Shown in pieces: positions 1 to 9,933 of a stretch of DNA of 9,933 nucleotides. Within the stretch, counting starts at the first letter, position 1. Each line of letters starts with the position of its first letter. A model generated the notes under the pieces. It was not told the origin of the DNA and made no database searches. It saw only the letters and a program-made list of their open reading frames with translations. Made by a program: the position numbers and the translations under genes. Origin of the DNA: a virus (lineage: Duplodnaviria > Heunggongvirae > Uroviricota > Caudoviricetes); IMG/VR virus record IMGVR_UViG_2634166457_000012, positions 1 to 9,933 of that record; one strand, written 5' to 3'.

Positions 1-385
1 AAATTTGATCCAGTAAGCACGGTTTTGGCCTTTTCGCCATTCTGTTGGCTCGGTTATTAGCATCAACAGCTTTGTAATAGCGTCTGCCCCGATTACGCTG
101 AACTTCACGTGAGATCGTCGAAGGACTGCGATTCAGCGCAGTAGCTATCGCACGAATGCTCATTTTGGCTGACAAACCAGCTCGTATCTCCTCGCGCTCA
201 GACAGTGTCAGGTGAGCTACAGCCCGCTTACGCTCATGGGGTTTTATGCCGCCAGTATCCCTTAACATAGTGAAGATCGTTCCGGGTTTTGAACCCAGGA
301 TATTCGCTATTTCACTGAAGCCTGTTCCGTTCTTCCATAGTTCAAAAACAGAGGCTTTTTCCTCTGCTGTAAATGTTCGTCTCAT
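1..385 (-). CDS. insI: IS30 transposase, N-terminal ~128 codons (C-terminus outside window)
   Basis: Minus-strand ATG at 385..383 preceded by GGAGG. Translation begins MRRTFTAEEKASVFELWKNGTGFSEIANILGSKPGTIFTMLRDTGG..., the helix-turn-helix N-terminus of IS30 transposase. Not in the ORF track because the frame runs off the window edge. Confidence 0.85.
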   Translation of the reverse strand, partial: MRRTFTAEEKASVFELWKNGTGFSEIANILGSKPGTIFTMLRDTGGIKPHERKRAVAHLTLSEREEIRAGLSAKMSIRAIATALNRSPSTISREVQRNRGRRYYKAVDANNRANRMAKRPKPCLLDQI

Positions 386-447
386 TCAAAAAACCTCCGC
401 AACCCCATGTTTTCACATAACTGTTGCGTTGACCAATTGAATCTACA
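1..447 (-). mobile_element. IS30 insertion sequence, partial (terminal inverted repeat plus 5' part of transposase gene; remainder lies beyond the window start)
   Basis: Reverse complement of 447..421 reads TGTAGATTCAATTGGTCAACGCAACAG, which I recognise as the IS30 terminal inverted repeat. It is followed by a GGAGG RBS and the transposase ATG. The element ends exactly where the gpD-like reading frame is broken (447/448). Confidence 0.88.
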
Positions 448-714
448 AGTGCCTTTTTCTGTCAGCGGTTCTCCTTTCCAGCCAATGAGAACCGTCAGGC
501 GCGCGCCCCGTGGCGGTAGCTGCAACTGACCATCCGCATCATCCAGCGTGATGGTGAGCTGGTCCGCCTCAAATCCTCGGTTGTCGGTCAGTGACAGGCT
601 CATCAGGCGCTCTGCCACGCCTGACAGCGTTTTACCCTCCGCAAGAATATCAAAATCCGGCATTTTCACGGGGTCTGTGCCCTGACTGAGCAATTGCATG
701 GTTGTGTCGGTCAT
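448..714 (-). pseudogene. D: P2 gpD-like tail/baseplate hub protein (late control gene D family), 5' fragment of ~89 codons truncated by IS30
   Basis: Minus-strand ATG at 714..712 with AGGGAGG RBS 6 nt upstream. Translation MTDTTMQLLSQGTDPVKMPDFDILAEGKTLSGVAERLMSLSLTDNRGFEADQLTITLDDADGQLQLPPRGARLTVLIGWKG carries the LTDNRGFEADQL-I-LDD motif typical of the phage gpD N-terminus. The frame reads into the IS30 end and stops at a TGA overlapping the transposase ATG. The track ORF 382..846 is this frame, over-extended upstream and read through into IS30. Confidence 0.6.
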
Positions 715-871
715 CTGTTCCCTCCCTGTGCGGCATGGTCGCATGTGCGTGCGGAGGGGGTTACTGCTTTTTGTTGTCGCCGTGGCGGGAGAATAGCGCA
801 GGGGTGAGATTACGCGCGTGGTGGGTGATGATTGTTGCTGAATCATTTAACGGATACAAGGGGCTGAAGCT
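715..871. promoter_or_regulatory. Divergent intergenic region between gpD-like (minus) and sheath FI (plus); presumed to carry promoters for both
   Basis: 157-bp non-coding gap between two divergently oriented starts, each with a good RBS. No confident -35/-10 pair and no P2 Ogr-type TGT-N12-ACA dyad found by eye. Confidence 0.3.
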
Positions 872-2056
872 ATGAGTGAAACTCGTTTTCATGGTGCCCG
901 TGTTACGGAAAATACCGACCTGGTAACAGCGATTAACGATGTTGATTCCAGCGTTATCGGTATCGTGGCAACGGCGGATGATGCGGACGCGAAGCTGTTC
1001 CCGCTGAACAAGCCCACACTGCTGACCCGCGTCAATGACGTGCTGGGAAAATGCGGGACAACGGGGACGCTTTATCGTGCGCTTAAGGCCATCGCAGACC
1101 AGGTGAGCACAAAGGTGATCGTCGTTCGCGTGGCTGAACACAAAGAAGAAGACGGAAAGACGCAGGATCAACTGGTTATCGGTGGTTCTGAGGATGATGG
1201 CAGCTATACGGGGATGTATGCGCTGCTTGTTGCAGAGCAGGATGAAAGCATCGGATACCGTCCGCGTATTCTGGCCGCGCCGGAGCTGGACACGGAGGCG
1301 GTGACAAAATCCCTGTGCGTGATTGCGGGTAAACTGCGCGCGTTTGTGTATGCCACATGTCATGGTTGTAACACGATGGCTGAGGCAATTACCTACCGCC
1401 AGAAATTCAACGAACGTGAGGTGATGCTCTTATGGCCGGACTTCATCGCCTACAACCCGAAAAGTGGCAAAAACGAAACGTTCCCCGCGCCTGCCTATGC
1501 GTGCGGCCTTCGTGCGTACATTGACCATGAGCAGGGCTGGCACAAATCACTGTCCAACGTTCCGGTTAAAAATGTGCTGGGGATGTCGAGGCATGTGTTC
1601 TGGTCGTTGCAGGCCGAAGACAGCGATGCCAACAGCCTCAATAATAAAGAAATCACGACCATTATTCGTCGCAACGGGTTCCGCTTCTGGGGCAACCGCA
1701 CACCGGAAACGAACGCCTACATCTTTGAGGTGTATACCCGAACCGCACAGGTGCTGGCTGATTCAATTGCGGAAGCGCAGTTTGAAACCATCGACAGTCC
1801 ACTGACGCCTGCGAATGTGAAGGATGTTATCAGTGCCATCAGGGCAAAACTGGATTCGCTGGTTACTGCCGGGAAACTGATTGGTGCGGAGTGCTGGTAT
1901 GACGTGGTGGATAACGGTACCACGAATTTACGTCAGGGACGTGTGCGTATTCGCTACAAATATACGCCTGTTCCCCCGCTGGAAGACATGGAGCTTTACC
2001 AGACGTTTACTGATGAATTCTTTGGTCCCGCATTTGCGGTGCTGGGAGGTGCCTGA
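872..2056 (+). CDS. FI: Contractile tail sheath protein (P2 gpFI family), 394 aa
   Basis: ATG 872 with AGGGG RBS ~8 nt upstream. Length and sequence character match myovirus sheath proteins of the P2 FI type (P2 FI is ~396 aa). Followed immediately by tube, chaperone, tape measure and gpU in the canonical order. Confidence 0.88.
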   Translation: MSETRFHGARVTENTDLVTAINDVDSSVIGIVATADDADAKLFPLNKPTLLTRVNDVLGKCGTTGTLYRALKAIADQVSTKVIVVRVAEHKEEDGKTQDQLVIGGSEDDGSYTGMYALLVAEQDESIGYRPRILAAPELDTEAVTKSLCVIAGKLRAFVYATCHGCNTMAEAITYRQKFNEREVMLLWPDFIAYNPKSGKNETFPAPAYACGLRAYIDHEQGWHKSLSNVPVKNVLGMSRHVFWSLQAEDSDANSLNNKEITTIIRRNGFRFWGNRTPETNAYIFEVYTRTAQVLADSIAEAQFETIDSPLTPANVKDVISAIRAKLDSLVTAGKLIGAECWYDVVDNGTTNLRQGRVRIRYKYTPVPPLEDMELYQTFTDEFFGPAFAVLGGA

Positions 2057-2568
2057 TGGCTGTACCAAAACATCTTCGCTTTTTTACGTTGTTTGTGGAT
2101 GGTGAAAACGAAGTGGGTAAAGTGACATCCGTCACGCCGCCCAAACTGACGCGCAAAACCGACAGCTATCGTGGTGGTGGCATGATGGGGGCGGTAAGTA
2201 TTGATCTCGGTCTGGACGACTCCGCGCTTGATGCGAGTTTTGTCATGGGGGGAGCTGTTCGTGCGCTGTTCCTTAAATATGGTGGCACGATTGACGGCAC
2301 GCTGCTGCGTTTTGCGGGTGAATACTACACCGATGCAGAAAGCGATCTGTATGAAATCGAGATGCGTGGGCGTGTGACGGAAATTGATATGGGGGAAGCC
2401 AAACAGGGCGAAGCCACATCACACACTTACGCTGTCAAAAACACCTACTACAAGCTGAGCGTTAACGATCGCCCGCTGTGGGAAATCGACCTGTTGAACC
2501 ACATCTACCGGAAGGACGGCAAGGACATTGTGCCTGACCGTATCCGTTCCGCGCTTGGGCTTGGCTGA
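2056..2568 (+). CDS. FII: Tail tube protein (P2 gpFII family), 170 aa
   Basis: ATG 2056 overlaps the FI stop (TGATG) and is preceded by GGGAGGTG. Size matches P2 FII (~172 aa) and it sits directly after the sheath gene. Confidence 0.88.
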   Translation: MAVPKHLRFFTLFVDGENEVGKVTSVTPPKLTRKTDSYRGGGMMGAVSIDLGLDDSALDASFVMGGAVRALFLKYGGTIDGTLLRFAGEYYTDAESDLYEIEMRGRVTEIDMGEAKQGEATSHTYAVKNTYYKLSVNDRPLWEIDLLNHIYRKDGKDIVPDRIRSALGLG

Positions 2569-2623
2569 TAAGTAATATGCAGGCGGCGCAGTGCGTCGCC
2601 TCTGACTGAAAAGGAGACAACTG

Positions 2624-2998
2624 ATGAAAGACATCGATACTGAAACCCGGAATAACACCGTGGCGGATGATGTGACGGCAGGTGAGGATATGGCTGTCGA
2701 ACGTGGCGTAAAACTGACCCGACCAATTGAGCGTGGTGGCGAAAAAATCACGTATGTGGAGATCACCGGGGCTATTGAGCAGGCTGGATCCCTGCGTGGT
2801 CTGTCGCTGTCTGATGTGCTGAATCTGAAAGCGGATACCATGTTCACGCTGTTGCCTCGCGTGACCTCGCCACGACTGGATGAAGTGATGATTAAAAAAA
2901 TGTCGTCACGCGATTTTATTCAGTTGTGCGCTGTGGCTGTAAATTTTATGAGCGAGCCAGACTCTGGCGCGAAGAGCGTGCAGGAGACGGCAGCGTAA
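2624..2998 (+). CDS. E: Tail assembly chaperone (P2 gpE-like), 124 aa, zero-frame product
   Basis: ATG 2624 with AAGGAG RBS at 2611..2616. Small acidic protein between tube and tape measure. Its 3' part is overlapped by a -1 frame ORF that runs to 3162, the hallmark of the E/E' (lambda G/GT-like) chaperone pair. Confidence 0.78.
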   Translation: MKDIDTETRNNTVADDVTAGEDMAVERGVKLTRPIERGGEKITYVEITGAIEQAGSLRGLSLSDVLNLKADTMFTLLPRVTSPRLDEVMIKKMSSRDFIQLCAVAVNFMSEPDSGAKSVQETAA

Positions 2999-3162
2999 TC
3001 ACCCTGGTGTGCTTTGAGCACATCGAAGATCTGGTGGCGGATATTGCCGCCATTTTTAACTGGTCGCCCGCCGAAATCTTCATGATGACGCCCGGCGAAG
3101 TGGTTAGCTGGCGTGAGCGGGCGGCACTTCGCAGCGGGAATGCAGACAATGAAGACTCTTGA
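2624..3162 (+). CDS. Tail assembly chaperone frameshift product E+E' (programmed -1 frameshift, predicted ~179 aa)
   Basis: The -1 frame is open from 2896 (after TAA at 2893..2895) to TGA at 3160..3162 and overlaps the last ~100 nt of E. A heptamer fitting X_XXY_YYZ in the E frame lies at 2941..2947. The E' stop overlaps the start of T. Confidence 0.55.
2941..2947 (+). other. Candidate -1 slippery heptamer A_AAT_TTT for the E/E' frameshift
   Basis: E-frame codons AAT(2942..2944) and TTT(2945..2947) preceded by A2941. A small hairpin GCCAG-ACT-CTGGC (2956..2968) lies 8 nt downstream. An alternative site is the A7 run at 2894..2900 (T_AAA_AAA), which is non-canonical. Confidence 0.4.
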
Positions 3163-5956
3163 CATCCGGGTCGCTTTCAGCGCCGTTGACAGGCTGACCC
3201 GGCCTGCCGAAAACGCCCGCCGCCTGATGGGGCAGTTTGGTGACTCCATCCAGCGAACGCAGGGGGCGATCAAAAATCTCGAGCGTCAGGCGCGTTCATT
3301 TGAGCGCGCCCGTGACGCTGTCAGTAAAGCGGATGCTGGCGTATTGAAAGCACGACGCCAGCTTAACGCCCTTAATCAGTTACAACGCACGGGTACAGTG
3401 CTCAGCGAAAAACAACAAAAGCTGATGCAGCAGTTAAGCACCCGGCTTGAACGCCTGAATGAATCGCGCACACGGGAAATTCAGAAAATGCGGGAACTTG
3501 GCGGAGAGCTGAAACGCCACGGCATTTCCCTGACAGGCAGCGATAACACCATCCAGCAGGCCATCAGACGCACCGAACAGTACAACAACCAGCTTGAACG
3601 CGAACGGCAGGCGCTTGCGCGTGTAACGCGGGCGCGTGAGCGGTATTCGCGCGCGCAGGAAACAGAGGGAAAACTGAAAACAGGTGGTGCACTGGCAATT
3701 GGTGCGGCAGCGGCGGGCGGCTATGCTGCCGGGCGTTTTTTGCAGCCTGCGATCGGGTTCGGCAAAGAGATGTCCTGCGTTCAGGCACTGACGCGAATCG
3801 ACAAAAACAGCCCGCAGTTTAAGGCGCTGCGTGAGCAGGCGTTAAAACTTGGCTCTGAAACACAGTTTACTGCGAGTGATGCCGCCAGTGGGCAGAGCTT
3901 TCTGGCAATGGCTGGTTTTACTCCTCAGGCCATTCAGGCCGCATTGCCCGGTGTTCTTAATATGGCGCTGGCAGGTGGCGTCGAACTCGGCGAGACGGCT
4001 GATATAGGCTCCAATATCCTCACACAGTTCAACCTGACAGCCGATCAAATGGACCGGGTTGGCGATACGCTGACAGCAGCATTCACCCGGACCAATACTG
4101 ATTTACGCGCGCTGGGCGAAACCATGAAGTATACCGGTCCGGTTGCCGCAAAACTTGGTATCAGTCTTGAAGAAGCGGCGGCCATGGCCGGGATGCTTGC
4201 CAATAATGGTCTTCGCGGAAGCGATGCGGGTACGGCCATGCGCGCAAGTCTGTCCCGCCTTGCATCACCGCCAAAAGCTGCGGCTGATGCACTGAAAGAG
4301 CTGGGGGTGTCAGTTGCTGACGCCAGAGGCAAAATGCGCCCAATGGAGGATGTGCTGCTTGATCTCTATAAGGCGACACAAAAATACGGACAGGTGGACC
4401 AGGTCTCCTTCTTCAAGGACATCGCCGGAGAAGAGGCGTTCGTTGGTTTGCAGACGCTTGTTGCGGCGGCTGGTTCAGGAGAACTGCAAAAACTGACCAG
4501 AGAATTGCAGGGGGCAAGGGGAGAGGCCGATCGCGTTGCAAAAGTAATGGCCGATAATCTTGATGGGGACCTGAAAAATCTCGACAGCGCATGGGAAGGT
4601 CTTCGTATTCGCATCAGTGATCTGGTTGACGGTCCGCTGCGTTCTGTCACGCAGTGGCTCACGCGGGTGCTTGAAAAAATCACCTCGCTGGCGCAGGCCC
4701 ATCCGGTACTGACGCGCCAGCTACTGATAGCAGGCGGTGCGTTGCTGGCAATGACTGCAACGATTGGCTCGTTGTCGCTGGTTATTGGGGTGCTTTACGG
4801 GAAGCTGGCCACCCTGCGTCTTGGTTTTGACATTCTTACCCGGTCAATGAATGTCGTCAGGGTGTTGCCTGCGCTGTGGGGAATGGTGACGGGTTCCGTT
4901 TCTTTACTGGGGGGCGCTATCGGGGCGTTGTTCAGTCCGGTTGGTCTTATTGTGGCTGCGCTCGCCGGAGCTGCCGTTCTCATCTGGAAATACTGGGATC
5001 CCATCAGGGCATTTTTTGCCGGGGTGTTCAGCGGGATTATGGAAAGGCTGACCCCGTTGCGCGAAACCTTTGAACGGTTTGGTCCTGTTTTTGACGCAAT
5101 CGGAAGCGGGATCAGCCAGGTGTTTAACTGGTTTAAATCGCTGCTGTCACCGATGGAGTCCAGCAAGGAAACGCTGGATAAATGTACCAGTGCTGGCGAG
5201 ATATTCGGTAACGTTCTTGGCGGTGCGTTACAGCTTGTTCTGACACCTGCAAAAATGTTGCTGGATACGCTGGCGTGGATACTTGAAAAGCTCGGTGTGC
5301 TTCCGGATGAAGCGGAAAGGGCGCGCAAGAAAATCGAAGACGCACAGCGTGCGGCCATTCTTCAGGATAAGGTTGCCTTGCTTCAGGGGGACCTGGCGAA
5401 AATCAATCCGCCGAAGCCTGTGGAAAATGGCAATGGTACCGGAGGTGATAAGCCCAAAGACAACAAACCGCTCACAGACAGCAATACCGGTACGCTACGC
5501 AGACTCAGCAAAATTGCTGATAACACAGGTAAGCTGGTTGATGAGACGAAAAAACGCATTGGCCCCGGCGATATTGTCTTTAAGAACCTGCCCCGCGCAC
5601 TTGCTGTTCGTGGGGAGTGGCAGGAGCGGAAGATTGCGCAGGTCAGTAAGCCTGCCCCCGCAATTAATATCACACCCGTGGTTCCGGCTCCGCTGTCTCC
5701 AGCGCTGGTCCCTGTTGTTGCGGCCAGCTCCCGCCCGGTGGCGGAGGCCATACGATCGCCAGTGGCATCAGTTCCTGCAACTTCCCGTAACCGGGAGCCT
5801 GTTGCCTCCGGATTTGGCGGTGAAATTCATGTTCATCTGCATAACGTTGTTACGCAGAATCCCCGCGAACTGGCGAAACTGGTCGGTGAAATGGTCAGGG
5901 CAGAATTGGAACGACGCGACCGTGCCGGACGTGGCAGTTTTTACGATAAAGATTGA
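3149..5956 (+). CDS. T: Tail tape measure protein (P2 gpT-like), ~935 aa
   Basis: Long ORF directly after E/E'. N-terminal third is coiled-coil-like and rich in R/E/Q/L. The middle has Gly/Ala-rich hydrophobic segments (e.g. LLIAGGALLAMTATIGSLSLVIGVLYG and GAIGALFSPVGLIVAALAGAAVLIW) typical of tape measure proteins. Start chosen at ATG 3149 (GGGA ~9 nt upstream); in-frame alternatives are ATG 3140 and GTG 3113 (the track start). Confidence 0.85.
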   Translation: MKTLDIRVAFSAVDRLTRPAENARRLMGQFGDSIQRTQGAIKNLERQARSFERARDAVSKADAGVLKARRQLNALNQLQRTGTVLSEKQQKLMQQLSTRLERLNESRTREIQKMRELGGELKRHGISLTGSDNTIQQAIRRTEQYNNQLERERQALARVTRARERYSRAQETEGKLKTGGALAIGAAAAGGYAAGRFLQPAIGFGKEMSCVQALTRIDKNSPQFKALREQALKLGSETQFTASDAASGQSFLAMAGFTPQAIQAALPGVLNMALAGGVELGETADIGSNILTQFNLTADQMDRVGDTLTAAFTRTNTDLRALGETMKYTGPVAAKLGISLEEAAAMAGMLANNGLRGSDAGTAMRASLSRLASPPKAAADALKELGVSVADARGKMRPMEDVLLDLYKATQKYGQVDQVSFFKDIAGEEAFVGLQTLVAAAGSGELQKLTRELQGARGEADRVAKVMADNLDGDLKNLDSAWEGLRIRISDLVDGPLRSVTQWLTRVLEKITSLAQAHPVLTRQLLIAGGALLAMTATIGSLSLVIGVLYGKLATLRLGFDILTRSMNVVRVLPALWGMVTGSVSLLGGAIGALFSPVGLIVAALAGAAVLIWKYWDPIRAFFAGVFSGIMERLTPLRETFERFGPVFDAIGSGISQVFNWFKSLLSPMESSKETLDKCTSAGEIFGNVLGGALQLVLTPAKMLLDTLAWILEKLGVLPDEAERARKKIEDAQRAAILQDKVALLQGDLAKINPPKPVENGNGTGGDKPKDNKPLTDSNTGTLRRLSKIADNTGKLVDETKKRIGPGDIVFKNLPRALAVRGEWQERKIAQVSKPAPAINITPVVPAPLSPALVPVVAASSRPVAEAIRSPVASVPATSRNREPVASGFGGEIHVHLHNVVTQNPRELAKLVGEMVRAELERRDRAGRGSFYDKD

Positions 5957-5962
5957 GGAGTC

Positions 5963-6457
5963 ATGGCCATGATGATGATCTACGGCATGTTTGTTTTTGA
6001 GTTGCGCACGTTGCCGCATCAGCAGTTACAGCAAAACAAAAGCTGGCGACATGTGAAAAATGAACGCGTTAACCGTTCGGCAAGCTGGCAGTATATCGGT
6101 GCAGGTGATGATCGCATCGTTCTTTCGGGTGTTCTTTATCCTGAGATTACAGGTGGCGAAGTGTCGCTGTCGTTGTTGACCACGCAGGCATATACAGGAC
6201 GCCCCTGGCCTCTGATTGATGGCGTCGGGCAGATTTACGGCATGTATGTACTGACTGAAACGAATACGACCCGCTCCGAGTTTGATCGCTACGGTAAGGC
6301 GAAAAAGATAGAATTTTCACTGACTCTTGAACGCTGTGATGAGGATTTGCGGGAGCGCCTGCAATCCTCATCGTTCAGCGATATGTTGTCCGGCTTCAAA
6401 GATAAGGTGACATCATCCCTTAACAGCGCGGCCAGCTCAGTTAAGGGGCTGCTCTGA
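5963..6457 (+). CDS. U: Tail protein gpU-like (P2 U family), ~162-164 aa
   Basis: Follows the tape measure by 6 nt. Size matches P2 gpU (~159 aa). GAGGAG at 5955..5960 is best spaced for the in-frame ATGs at 5969/5972, so the true start may be 6-9 nt downstream of the track start 5963. Confidence 0.8.
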   Translation: MAMMMIYGMFVFELRTLPHQQLQQNKSWRHVKNERVNRSASWQYIGAGDDRIVLSGVLYPEITGGEVSLSLLTTQAYTGRPWPLIDGVGQIYGMYVLTETNTTRSEFDRYGKAKKIEFSLTLERCDEDLRERLQSSSFSDMLSGFKDKVTSSLNSAASSVKGLL

Positions 6458-6467
6458 TTTAACGTAT

Positions 6468-6500
6468 GTCGCCAATTTCCTGATGAAGGTGACTGGCGAC
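6468..6500 (+). other. Inverted repeat GTCGCCA-N19-TGGCGAC just downstream of the gpU stop; possible weak terminator or processing hairpin
   Basis: Perfect 7-bp arms at 6468..6474 and 6494..6500, followed by TTGCTGTTGT. The long loop and poor U-tract make an intrinsic-terminator call weak. Confidence 0.25.
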
Positions 6501-6533
6501 TTGCTGTTGTATGTCCTTCTCAGAAAATTGTTT

Positions 6534-6562
6534 TTGAATAACAAATAACAGGATTTTATAAT
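6534..6562 (+). promoter_or_regulatory. Near-consensus sigma70 promoter for the acetyltransferase moron
   Basis: TTGAAT (6534..6539), 17-nt spacer, TATAAT (6557..6562). Predicted transcript start ~6569, about 45 nt upstream of the GTG start, in an AT-rich non-coding stretch. Confidence 0.55.
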
Positions 6563-6613
6563 CTCTTAACCTTATAACATGTGTGGTCTGAAATAATAAT
6601 TAAGGAGATTTTC

Positions 6614-7186
6614 GTGCTGTCTTACTTAATGGCAATTCACTTTGTTTTATTTGGGAACTCTACTAATTTAAAAAACTTCTGGAAACATGAAGTGATTCGG
6701 CGGAAACGTATGGATATCTGGAGGCTTTTAAGAGAGAAAAAGCAGCGTAACCGGAATTTCCTGTTCTGGTGGCGGTTGGCTAACGAAATGTATATTAATG
6801 GTAATAAATCACATAAGAAAGCAGCCAAAAAGTTAAACAGTAAAATAATTAACAAATTTGGTTGTGAAATAGGATTGGGAGCAAATATTGGAAAAGGGTT
6901 AACAATTCCCCATCATGCTGGAATTGTTGTTCATTTTGCTGTTGATGCGGGTGAAAATCTGGTATTACGACAGAATACTACCATTGGACAGATAGATGGT
7001 GACATGCCTGGTTCAAGAGTGAAAATTGGTAGTAACGTTGATATCGGAGCTAATTGTTGCATCATTGGATTATCACGTAAAATTGGGGATAATGTAAAAA
7101 TAGGTGCAATGTCTTTTATAAATAAAGATATACCATCAAACTGCACATATATAACTAAAAAGAGTGGTGTTGTATTGTATAAATAG
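6614..7186 (+). CDS. Hexapeptide-repeat (left-handed beta-helix) acetyltransferase, serine O-acetyltransferase (CysE/WcaB/NeuO-like) family; ~190 aa; AT-rich moron
   Basis: Translation contains the SAT-family signature GCEIGLGANIGKGLTIPHHAGIVVHFAVDAGENLVLRQNTTIG followed by further hexapeptide repeats (VKIGSNVDIGANCCIIG, KIGDNVKIGAMSFINKDIP). Start assigned to GTG 6614 because AAGGAG (6602..6607) lies 6 nt upstream; the track ATG 6581 has no RBS. Followed by a strong terminator. Confidence 0.72.
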   Translation: MLSYLMAIHFVLFGNSTNLKNFWKHEVIRRKRMDIWRLLREKKQRNRNFLFWWRLANEMYINGNKSHKKAAKKLNSKIINKFGCEIGLGANIGKGLTIPHHAGIVVHFAVDAGENLVLRQNTTIGQIDGDMPGSRVKIGSNVDIGANCCIIGLSRKIGDNVKIGAMSFINKDIPSNCTYITKKSGVVLYK

Positions 7187-7193
7187 AGTACAT

Positions 7194-7230
7194 AAAGCCA
7201 TCGATATTTCTGTCGATGGCTTTTTCTTTT
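7194..7230. terminator. Rho-independent terminator, shared by the convergent acetyltransferase (plus) and tfa (minus) transcripts
   Basis: Perfect stem AGCCATCGA (7196..7204) / TCGATGGCT (7213..7221) with 8-nt loop, then TTTTTCTTTT (7221..7230) on the plus strand. On the minus strand the same stem follows the tfa stop but has only a short U-tract (UUUAUG). Confidence 0.8.
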
Positions 7231-7808
7231 TATTGTGGGGCGACTGGCCACTCAACATCCGCTGCTACTGTTGTATCAACACGATTCAACAATACCCTAT
7301 ATGTCTTCCATGCAGCCAGTAACGATGCCTCTTCCTCCGTCGCAATATCCAAATCTACGGCATCCTGAAGTGGCGCAATATGCTCACTGGCTACCTGCAT
7401 CAGGCTGTTTTTTGTTTCTTCTGCCTCCCGTACCCGAAACAGTTTTTCTGCTTCTGCATCTTTCACCCAGGATGTGCCGTTCCACTTCTGACACTCTCCA
7501 TCCGGCGACAACCAGGTAACATTTTCCGGTAACGGACCGAGTTCAGAAATAAATAACGCGTCCCCTGATGCCACGTCATAAACCGTTTTACCCCGATGGT
7601 CTTCAACGAGATGCCACGATGCCTCATCACTGTTGAAAACAGCCACGAAGCCTGCCGGAATATCTGGTGGTGCAATATCGGTACTGTTTGCAGGCAGACC
7701 TGTATGAGGTGGAATGTATGCATCACCTTCCCCAATAAATTCATTAGTTCCGGCCAGCAGGTTATAAATTTTTATGGTCCGTGATTGTTCACTCATTCTG
7801 AAATCCAT
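7230..7808 (-). CDS. tfa: Tail fibre assembly protein (lambda Tfa / P2 gpG family), ~192 aa
   Basis: Translation ([97 protein letters not shown]...) is near-identical to phage lambda Tfa as I recall it. ATG 7808 with GAGGTG 5 nt upstream; the track start GTG 7814 is less likely. Confidence 0.9.
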
Positions 7809-7816
7809 GTTCACCT

Positions 7817-8719
7817 CTACTTAATATCAGAGACAGAATATTGTTTATTGAGCGTATGGGTGGGAGTACCAATAACGATGCTACTTCCGTGGCTATGTGC
7901 GCCAGAGGTGACATTACCTACGGGATTTTCTGGATTAATCCGGTGTATATGCGAACCAGGGCGAAAACGGTTATTAGCCTGATGTTGTATCAGTACATCA
8001 TCAGCCTGATGTTCAGGGTTAATACAGACTTGCCCGGAACGAGAGCAACACGTCCGATAATCGCCACATCCAATATATTTAGTATCCGCATAACGGCAAA
8101 CGGAATTACCCGGACAGTATGCATATGTGCCAAATACTGCCGACTGGCGAGATTGTGCGTATTCCCAGTTAATTGATTCTGTTTTTTTATTAAAGTTATC
8201 CCATGCCTGCTTCATCTGTCGGGCAACACTTTCAAACGGCACCTGACCACATCCGGCCCCCATTGCAGGGAATACCACTGTTTTTATTTTCATGTCTGTC
8301 GTTGCGTTTTTATTGTGTTGAAAGATGGCAAGCAGAGCGGCCCAGGTTGCGTTATATACAGCGTCTGTTCCGTCAATTGTCAACGGAACACGCATTGTTG
8401 GCGCATGTACCAGCCAGGGGTGATGATTATGCCCCGTTTCAATGACAAATGCAGAACCTACAGGCTGTTCGCCGAGATATTCACGAAGAATATGATTCTG
8501 AACGCGGGACTGTAACTGAGTACCGAAGAATGCGGTAATGGCGGCATCAACGCCACCATCCATCAAGCCGAAACTATTTGCCGCACTTACCATGCAGTCA
8601 AATTCTCTGATTGTTTCAAATGGCTTTCCGACAATATTCACACTATCTGCATTTGCAAATACCTGCTTAAATGCTTCAGCCATTTCTGTTACTGGTGCAG
8701 AAAGAATGAGCGTAATCAT
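7817..8719 (-). CDS. Macro-domain protein (predicted ADP-ribose-binding / ADP-ribosyl hydrolase) with Cys/His-rich C-terminal extension, 300 aa
   Basis: N-terminal ~180 aa carry macro-domain motifs in the correct order: [26 protein letters not shown] (compare VNAAN..L.GGGGVDGAIHRAAG), [25 protein letters not shown], and [22 protein letters not shown] (compare FPAISTGVYGYP). ATG 8719..8717 overlaps the stf stop (ATGA) with GAGG 5 nt upstream. Stop TAG 7819..7817 lies 8 nt before the tfa ATG. Coding call is strong; the functional call is from motif recognition only. Confidence 0.7.
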
Positions 8720-9933
8720 GCAAGCCTCACAATATAGTTAAATGCGATGTTTTTTACGGTGTTTTCTGCGTTACCCGTAGCGTTAACGGTGATGGTATGC
8801 CCGTGTGAACCTATCGCAACGGAGTGTGTGTGTGCGCCAATATTTACTGTGTGAGAGTGCCCCCCTGCGTTACTTGTTTTTCCAGTGCCAAGCCCTGAGT
8901 TATAACCAGCCGAAACACCATTACCAGCGCCAGTGTTGCCAACAGGAATATTGTGTGAATGATCCCCGGCGCTATTCGTGGTTTTAGTGCCATGGTTAAA
9001 TGAACTGGACGTCTTGGTGCCGTAGTCAAATGATGATGTGGTTTTTGTCCCCAAGTCCGTACTGGACGCGCTGGCACTGTGGGAGTGTGATTTAATGCCG
9101 TCCTGTTCCTGAGATAATACGGCCCGACCACTGGCGGGTTTGCCCTTAATCGTCCAGCCACGCATATCAGGGATCACACCAGACGGATAAGCGACTGCAA
9201 GCAGGGGGTAGACTGTTTTATCAAAAGTCTGCCCCTGCATAACGGTGTAGCCTGTAGGCACTGAATCAGAAGGCCACGGTATCGCCGCACCTACCGGAAA
9301 TGAATCTTGTGGCGTCCATGGTGTCCAGTCACCCGTTGAGTACTGGCTGCGGGTATAGCTTCTGGATGTGTCATACACATAGTAAATCTGTGTTATCCCG
9401 GCATTTTTAAGCACAACCAGTGTACCCGCAAAATTCTCCGGGTATTTCAGCGCTGCGCTTGTATTGGCATTCAATGGCTGATGGTACAGCCCCGGTGTTT
9501 TGTAATTATCCAGATTCTGATTTGCACCAATCTCAATACTCTGGCCGTTAAAAATATCCTGCGATGTAACATTGACATCATTGGCTAGTGATTTGCCATT
9601 AACCTTACGTCCAGAGGGCACACGCCCGTTTGCATTGTCATTAGCGGCTTTCACCGCTTTCGGAGTCGCGGCAAGCGTTTCAGAATCACTGTTAGTGACG
9701 CTACTGAGCTGGACTATTCCTTTTCGTGCCGTCGTGGCGTCCTGTGCGGTATATTTCCCGTTAGCAAGGTCATAGGCTGCCTTTACCGCCTTTGGTGTTG
9801 CCGCCAGCGTTTCTGAATCGCTGTTGGTGGCGCTACTGAGCTGGACTATTCCTTTTCGTGCCGTCGTGGCGTCCTGAGCGGTATATTTCCCGTTAGCAAG
9901 GTCATATGTTGCCTTTACCGCCTTTGGTGTTGC
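8716..9933 (-). CDS. stf: Side tail fibre protein (lambda Stf-like), C-terminal ~405 codons; N-terminus lies beyond the window end
   Basis: Frame is open to the window edge with no start codon. Contains 44-aa tandem repeats [34 protein letters not shown](A/V)TNSDSETLA characteristic of enterobacterial phage tail fibres. The His-rich C-terminus [28 protein letters not shown]...[11 protein letters not shown] matches the lambda Stf tip. The track ORF 8716..9654 is the same frame cut at an internal GTG. Confidence 0.9.
9655..9933 (-). repeat. Tandem direct repeats, period 132 bp (44 codons), at least 2 copies in window, within the stf coding region
   Basis: GCTACTGAGCTGGACTATTCC occurs at 9700 and again at 9832; GCCTTTACCGCCTTTGGTGTTGC at 9779 and 9911. 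Copies are near-identical over ~90 bp, and the copy nearest the C-terminal part is diverged at one end. Confidence 0.85.

Follow-up and report, generated by a model that had tools for sequence, protein, structure and literature searches.

A tfa-linked acetyltransferase gene as a candidate lysogenic-conversion moron in a decaying P2-family prophage of Escherichia coli

The window analysed here is a stretch of 9,933 nucleotides (nt; IMG/VR record IMGVR_UViG_2634166457_000012, positions 1 to 9,933) whose source is a decaying P2-family prophage of Escherichia coli. Between the tail gene gpU and tfa, the homologue of P2 gene G, it carries a short AT-rich segment with a gene for a left-handed beta-helix (LbH) acetyltransferase that belongs to the WcaB/CysE-like branch. 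This accessory gene, a moron, was acquired horizontally and is variable cargo at this position. The main regularity is that genes of this enzyme family are linked to cassettes of tfa and fibre genes in P2-like, P1-like and other phages. We suggest, with a probability of roughly 0.55, that the gene is an autonomous moron for lysogenic conversion and that its product O-acetylates an envelope glycan.

In kind, an acetyltransferase moron of a prophage at a known hotspot is already familiar. New here are how common the gene is, its mis-annotation and its repeated linkage to tfa in different phage families. The gene is found in 530 of 5,426 complete E. coli genomes (~10%, 534 chromosomal and 66 plasmid places), and in this tenth of the genomes it is uniformly mis-named as an enzyme of the cysteine pathway. 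If a surface glycan is indeed acetylated, the gene would give rise to unrecognised variation in the surface and in serology, to differences in phage susceptibility and possibly to altered host interaction, and it would be relevant to phage therapy and typing. The recurrent placement beside tfa, moreover, provides a simple case, open to testing, in which a function that modifies receptors travels together with genes for host range.

Linkage to tfa and variable cargo

The linkage was counted over 80 IMG/VR viral loci with homologues of the window protein. The immediate 3' neighbour is a convergent tfa in 64 of them. This adjacency occurs in about 10 of 15 distinct lineages, and in one more lineage tfa lies two genes upstream. 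It holds at enzyme identities of 44-70% and tfa identities of 38-77%, while the 5' neighbours in the tfa-linked loci are unrelated (gpU, P1 U, tail sheath and others). P1-like phage JL22 has the gene for a 91%-identical protein within its fibre (C) segment, which Cin can invert; the gene lies between U and tfa and is convergent with tfa. The DNA homology between the window and JL22 forms a single block (6622-7802, 91.7%) spanning the enzyme, the terminator and the whole of tfa. It then skips a macro-domain open reading frame (ORF) and resumes at 8712-9298 with 79% identity, in the stf C-terminus that stands directly beside tfa in JL22. The convergent stops of the acetyltransferase gene and tfa are separated by 43 nt (7187-7229), which contain the terminator. 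The length of this gap, with a tblastn-based value of 47, does not vary among P2- and P1-type loci.

The contents of the gpU/tfa junction differ among related prophages, which makes the segment variable cargo and not an ordinary conserved tail-module gene, as the earlier note on this DNA had proposed. At the same junction, locus L004 has a GT9 glycosyltransferase adjoining an 89%-identical tfa, L005 a second LbH gene (35% identity), L006 an invertase with an alternative fibre cassette, and L007 no cargo. Homology to the P2-type prophages that lack the gene (L005, L006 and L007) ends at 6462-6464, i.e., 5-7 nt past the gpU stop, and homology to the GT9-bearing L004 extends to 6512. The alternative cargo genes at these fibre-proximal slots are all AT-rich, with a G+C of 0.31-0.40. 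The traits of a moron are present as sequence signals: an own promoter-like site, a terminator, an atypical composition and a patchy presence among relatives.

The slot adjoining gene G/tfa is a known P2 hotspot for morons and defence genes (PMC3573123; bioRxiv 10.1101/2024.10.15.618418; PMC9519451). In this lineage the FI-U operon is inverted, so that the slot is flanked by gpU and tfa instead of G and FI. Diverged homologues in L081-L084 and L096 are found between tfa and the sheath gene, in the canonical order G, cargo, FI. As to the earlier assignment of the gene to the P2 Z/fun hotspot, the gene stands directly beside the tfa/G homologue on one flank and beside gpU on the other. The linkage to tfa is a stronger regularity than the P2 hotspot.

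Carriers of the gene include O157:H7, other Shiga toxin-producing and enteropathogenic E. coli, and P1-like phage-plasmids. The ratio of nonsynonymous to synonymous substitution rates is 0.08-0.16, and the ORF is intact in all 56 of 56 close homologues. The gene has been kept in the window although this prophage is defective, and it is intact in a heavily decayed O157:H7 prophage where the sheath and tube genes are lost, insertion sequence (IS) elements are present and the holin gene is broken. From the purifying selection and the retention in decayed prophages it follows that the protein itself is useful.

The composition of the segment sets it apart. Its G+C is 0.345 (0.349 in the coding sequence), against 0.544 in the FI-U tail operon and 0.479 in tfa, and the G+C at third codon positions (GC3) is 0.30, against 0.57 in the tail operon. 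Among sliding frames of 772 nt over the 9,933 nt, the G+C minimum starts at 6465 and is about three standard deviations under the mean. The earlier note had judged the low G+C by eye and had listed a near-consensus promoter, a strong AAGGAG ribosome-binding site, a protein of about 190 residues and a strong terminator. The low G+C is borne out by the sliding G+C and GC3, and the other four are found at the positions in Table 1, the promoter as a sequence match. The mechanical ORF is longer, starting at 6581 with 201 residues. However, the ATG of the homologues aligns exactly with GTG 6614, which fixes the start there and the protein at 190 residues. The Shine-Dalgarno region is conserved as TTAAGGAGATT among close homologues. 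The terminator has a folding energy of -18.8 kcal/mol (z = -5.0), and none of 200 shuffled sequences folds as well.

The promoter-like site TTGAAT-17-TATAAT has the best score in the region, tied with a minus-strand site inside the coding sequence. It is kept in every P2-type locus, even in L080 with a protein of 70% identity, and the P1-type loci have a different, stronger match (TTGACA-18-TAAAAT). Upstream of it, the spacer that follows gpU contains an imperfect hairpin (inverted repeat I3, 6468-6500). An Rfam search found no known RNA element in the 5' leader of the acetyltransferase gene, the sole hit above gathering score being IS009 within tfa. The L080 locus (L080:4830-5570) is a mosaic, having the same 5' leader and promoter as the window, a 70%-identical protein and a backbone whose tape measure is 39% identical. 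Its sequence suggests recombination within the acetyltransferase gene or at its edge.

A short acetyltransferase of the WcaB/CysE-like branch

Profile and structure searches place the window protein among the LbH acetyltransferases, in the WcaB/CysE-like branch, and the enzyme is presumably trimeric and acetyl-CoA-dependent. The NCBIfam matches are EpsC (6.8e-21), cysE (6.8e-17) and WcaB (8.9e-15 and 3.3e-14). The protein also matches PHROG 2154, of unknown function, at 5e-87, while the Pfam Hexapep match (E 3e-5) stays at 24 bits, under the gathering score of 27. A phmmer search of the PDB finds serine acetyltransferases at 5e-13, covering the C-terminal LbH part only, with alignments that begin at residue 118-140 or later of these enzymes. 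Structurally, the AlphaFold2 monomer model (predicted local distance difference test, pLDDT, 80) shows five helices at the N-terminus and then the beta-helix. Foldseek aligns this model to serine acetyltransferase crystal structures with a probability of 1.0 and a template-modelling (TM) score of 0.66, and returns no match with E under 1 among the viral structures in BFVD.

RefSeq labels the gene serine (O-)acetyltransferase. Judged from its sequence, however, the protein is not the serine acetyltransferase of the cysteine pathway, and this database name is an over-annotation. We draw this conclusion because the N-terminal domain, the Asp92 segment, Asp157 and the C-terminal tail of CysE are missing and because the scores are far under the cutoffs. 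The CysE equivalog scores are 62 bits against a required 210.65 (TIGR01172) and 37.6 against 397 (NF008349), and the WcaB score is 54.5 bits against 196. The earlier note's placement in a serine O-acetyltransferase-like hexapeptide family is thus correct for the LbH CysE/EpsC/WcaB branch, by profile search, but not in the sense of a true serine acetyltransferase.

The residues were compared in an alignment, A1, of the window protein and its family with the genuine E. coli CysE and WcaB. E. coli CysE binds serine by Asp157, Arg192 and His193, and its C-terminal tail binds CysK. The alignment shows Asp157 replaced by Pro and His193 by Val; an equivalent of Arg192 is present, at a position that is variable across the family. 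The window protein stops 4 columns past the LbH domain, so that the C-terminal tail is absent. At the N-terminus, CysE is about 80 residues longer, and Pfam SATase_N has no match in the window protein. The catalytic dyad of CysE is Asp92-His158 (PMC13040420). The window protein, its whole family and WcaB all have a deletion of the segment bearing Asp92 (RTRDPAVDKYSTPLLYLKGF). The histidine side of the dyad has a counterpart in His99/His100 of the motif IPHHAG, with the first of the pair aligned to CysE His158 and to the second His of the WcaB HH motif. At least 90% of 28 family members share His100; the distant relative in E28 (L005) is without the catalytic His.

Proposed function and rival explanations

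Several relatives of the gene are found next to genes associated with lipopolysaccharide (LPS). A homologue in Xenorhabdus has a GT25 gene (L018:4644-5393) 58 nt downstream on the same strand, both being convergent on a putative fibre gene. The homologue in L085/L086 adjoins an HtrL_YibB gene (L085:3753-4610), and the GT9 gene of L004 (L004:4092-5270), which lies in the fibre-proximal slot, is heptosyltransferase-like. Three LPS-associated families (GT9, GT25 and HtrL) thus accompany or replace the acetyltransferase homologues. A Buttiauxella homologue is convergent on a tail-fibre gene. Other settings are beside an integrase, on a virulence plasmid and as orphan chromosomal genes. The 57%-identical paralogue P0029 (L008-L011:4001-4573) is very common in E. 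coli (594 index blocks) and marks a second conserved location of the family, where a P2/HP1-like prophage remnant ends, beside hok and a chromosomal copper/heavy-metal ATPase gene.

The proposal of a surface glycan as the target is based on the WcaB-like architecture, on the GT9, GT25 and HtrL partners and on precedents with experimental support, namely NeuO, NeaT and the acetyltransferases of Klebsiella prophages. With the late operon silent, transcription would start at the gene's own sigma-70 promoter, and the small cytoplasmic enzyme would acetylate a sugar hydroxyl of an envelope glycan intermediate that is accessible from the cytoplasm. The acceptor might be the lipid A-core or a repeat unit linked to undecaprenyl pyrophosphate. 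The surface structure would thereby be altered, which is lysogenic conversion. A plausible pay-off would be that phages whose Tfa-dependent fibres belong to the same class adsorb less; the interaction with the host might be altered as well. The glycan acceptor, the expression in the lysogen and the exclusion phenotype are what we infer.

A number of points weigh against this proposal. Every named equivalog model in NCBIfam is missed by a wide margin. No family member lies inside a chromosomal polysaccharide locus in the 8 sampled lineages, and the LPS core of E. coli is not known to be O-acetylated. In E. coli, H-NS often silences foreign genes that are AT-rich, and the promoter at 6534-6562 is a consensus match only. 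Such a match says little by itself, since five sites were found in a scan over 1.1 kb against 3.3 expected by chance. The adjacency to tfa could reflect a mere permissive operon end. Enzymes of 97-98% identity stand beside at least four fibre-tip variants, which share 55-86% identity over their last 150 residues, and tfa genes of ~90% identity are widespread without the enzyme and also occur with GT9 instead.

The last two observations bear on how the linkage is to be read. A tight match between enzyme, receptor and fibre is unsupported, because several tips share one enzyme and the same tfa occurs without the gene or with GT9. A strict pairing of enzyme and fibre tip was examined and rejected on account of the near-identical enzymes adjoining four or more tip variants. 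The association is instead with a class of Tfa-dependent fibres, or simply with an operon end, and not with one receptor specificity.

A more far-reaching version of the glycan proposal, which we consider conceivable but doubtful, is that the enzyme and the tfa/fibre genes make up a mobile cassette with two functions, host range (fibre tip and Tfa) and a cognate O-acetylation that masks the LPS receptor to which fibres of this Tfa-dependent class bind, exchanged among P2-like, P1-like and other phages. GT9, GT25 and HtrL would then be alternative masking modules in the same slot. The pairing of llp with the receptor-binding protein in T5 would be an analogue. If the cassette exists, about 10% of E. 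coli, O157:H7 included, would have an LPS modification that is widespread and unrecognised.

Among the rival explanations, a target other than a glycan is unlikely. The enzyme would then be a defence, counter-defence or detoxifying acetyltransferase acting on a small molecule, a nucleotide sugar or a protein. This would suit a slot whose G-proximal P2 counterpart holds validated defence systems (PMC9519451; bioRxiv 10.1101/2024.10.15.618418), and a gene that stands alone on many mobile elements, for instance at prophage ends beside hok, beside integrases and on virulence plasmids. However, a PADLOC scan gave no match to a defence family at E <= 0.01, and no model of the Vat/CatB-type xenobiotic acetyltransferases is among the NCBIfam matches. 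Furthermore, the neighbours and replacements in the slot are glycosyltransferases of LPS type, and the closest relative with the short architecture is WcaB of colanic acid.

That the gene is a passive passenger we think rather improbable. According to this explanation, the end of the fibre operon is a permissive slot and the gene is transferred together with tfa by proximity, without a functional link. One enzyme beside several fibre tips, and one type of tfa with other cargo or none, are what it would predict, and the slot is a hotspot of mixed purposes (bioRxiv 10.1101/2024.10.15.618418). Purifying selection and retention in decayed prophages speak against it, as does an adjacency that persists at 44-66% identity with changed upstream flanks. 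This explanation concerns the meaning of the linkage and not the activity of the enzyme, and it is compatible with a surface-modifying role.

The adjacency to tfa, which is strong, ancient and seen in several phage families, could also mean that the enzyme acts in the lytic cycle, modifying or assisting the tail fibre/Tfa complex of the virion. This is very improbable, as the strand of the gene is opposite to that of the late operon and the gene has a promoter and a terminator of its own. Furthermore, many prophages with a ~90%-identical tfa, cryptic ones included, lack it, GT9 or nothing can take its place, and it has family members far from any tail gene. Least credible of all is a true serine O-acetyltransferase, which as an auxiliary metabolic gene would increase or deregulate the lysogen's synthesis of cysteine. 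The RefSeq name and the best sequence and structural matches, to CysE enzymes, would speak for it, but against it stand the missed equivalog cutoffs, the alignment of only the C-terminal LbH part, the missing key residues, N-terminal domain and tail of CysE, and a family that travels with phage fibre genes and LPS glycosyltransferases and not with cys genes.

Layout of the window and comparison with known systems

The features of the window are collected in Table 1. From position 447 onwards it is collinear with strain 2014C-4587 at 97-99.5% identity, and positions 1-447 are 99.8% identical, in inverted orientation, to an IS30 remnant of the O157:H7 PV15-279 prophage. The prophage is defective, because the IS30-related sequence abuts a truncated gpD. 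The FI-FII-E-T-U tail operon (872-6457) is inverted with respect to canonical P2 and convergent with H-G (7230-9933), with gpD and ogr on the other strand. The inverted FI-U arrangement is also present in the O157:H7 CP-933T/Sp13-like element adjoining glyW-cysT-leuZ. The interval between gpD and ogr is a second variable slot, holding a hypothetical protein in one locus (L001:6298-6963) and a YecA-family protein in another (L002:4758-5897).

Table 1. Features of the 9,933-nt window with their positions and strands.
Feature	Position	Strand	Remarks
IS30-related sequence, then truncated gpD	1-447 and 382-846	-	
Sheath, tube, E, tape measure, gpU (FI-U tail operon)	872-6457	+	
AT-rich segment with acetyltransferase	6458-7229	+	
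Spacer 3' of gpU stop codon, left edge of variable segment	6458..6512	+	
Sigma-70-type promoter-like site TTGAAT-17-TATAAT	6534..6562	+	10/12 consensus positions, ends 51 nt before start codon
Shine-Dalgarno AAGGAG, 5 nt 5' of GTG 6614	6603..6608	+	Read from sequence
Acetyltransferase coding sequence, 190 residues + stop: N-terminal helical domain (~1-82), LbH acetyltransferase domain	6614..7186	+	WcaB/CysE-like, PHROG 2154
Intrinsic terminator: 13-bp stem, then U-run	7194..7223	+	
tfa, P2 gene G homologue, convergent partner of acetyltransferase	7230..7814	-	Pfam Caudo_TAP 3.8e-40
Macro-domain ORF, 300 residues	7817-8719	-	Pfam Macro 9.6e-19; PHROG 2613, function unknown
Tail-fibre gene H, C-terminal part	from 8716; C-terminal part 8716..9298	-	Pfam Collar, Phage_fiber

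The Rfam match inside tfa is to IS009 (RF02111), full-length, at 7267-7465 on the minus strand, which is the sense strand, in the 3' half of the coding sequence (191 bits against a gathering score of 117). As it lies within coding sequence, this "sRNA" family is essentially a conserved segment of tfa mRNA. The macro-domain ORF has a start that overlaps the stop of fibre gene H (ATGA) and is, because of this overlap, probably transcribed late. It is a separate insertion, as it is present in only 12 of the 80 related loci and absent from JL22. Cys and His abound in its C-terminal ~115 residues, and its product may be a counter-defence enzyme directed at ADP-ribose. The idea that it is a fusion with a fibre was dropped, since BLAST showed no similarity to any neighbouring fibre.

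The known enzyme that the window protein resembles in its short architecture is WcaB of E. coli (b2058). According to alignment A1, both have a short helical N-terminus followed by the LbH domain, both lack the CysE N-terminal domain and the Asp92 segment, both have an HH motif, and they are 31% identical. This likeness indicates that the protein works like WcaB, with no membership implied. However, its N-terminus is about 30 residues longer than that of WcaB and has a family-specific FWWRLANEM motif, and while wcaB lies between wcaA and wcaC, the window gene stands alone, on phages and plasmids. CysE shares the LbH core and the His158 equivalent and is the best structural match, but the window protein is without the N-terminal domain of serine acetyltransferases and hence without a basis for hexamer formation.

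NeuO is a member of the maltose/galactoside acetyltransferase branch. The models of this kind, LacA (1.1e-6) and Maa (7.4e-4), match the window protein weakly, well under CysE, EpsC and WcaB in NCBIfam. As no NeuO-like model surfaced in the family searches, the two enzymes apparently belong to different LbH branches. NeuO, which acts on polysialic acid, is likewise prophage cargo and an LbH acetyl-CoA O-acetyltransferase, and its activity in prophage CUS-3 lowers susceptibility to K1 phages (PMC3046976, PMC13001214). However, it has a poly-psi domain that the window gene lacks, and it is carried on a P22-like backbone, while the window family is found on P2- and P1-like ones. Tandem Repeats Finder detected no heptanucleotide or other tandem repeats of the kind that underlies NeuO phase variation in 6400-7300 at a minimum score of 30. 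The NeuO precedent cited in the earlier note is thus valid as a functional analogy, but it is matched neither by NeuO-like family hits nor by phase-variable repeats. More broadly, acetyltransferases are common in Klebsiella prophages (PMC13123978).

Searches of the literature by protein accession or PHROG id found no mention of the gene. The sole paper found to discuss it leaves its presence in JL22 unexplained and calls its role unknown (PMC9603915). No acetyltransferase is mentioned in the P2 hotspot papers of Rousset 2022 and Vassallo 2022. The P2 Z/fun hotspot (moron position 2) is like the slot described here in lying beside tfa/G and in its varied contents, which include invertases and swapped fibre and tfa genes. 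It differs in that the other flank here is gpU and the cargo enzyme has no known defence-system match.

NeaT, encoded by phi-b0847, which is a P2-like prophage in CFT073, is also an AT-rich acyltransferase moron of a single gene, placed beside gene G and on the strand opposite to G/tfa. The neaT gene has 30% G+C, occupies P2 moron position 2, and is rare and variable among P2-like phages (PMC3573123). Its product, however, is a membrane protein of the Acyl_transf_3 family (PF01757) with an unrelated fold, and the window gene is far commoner.

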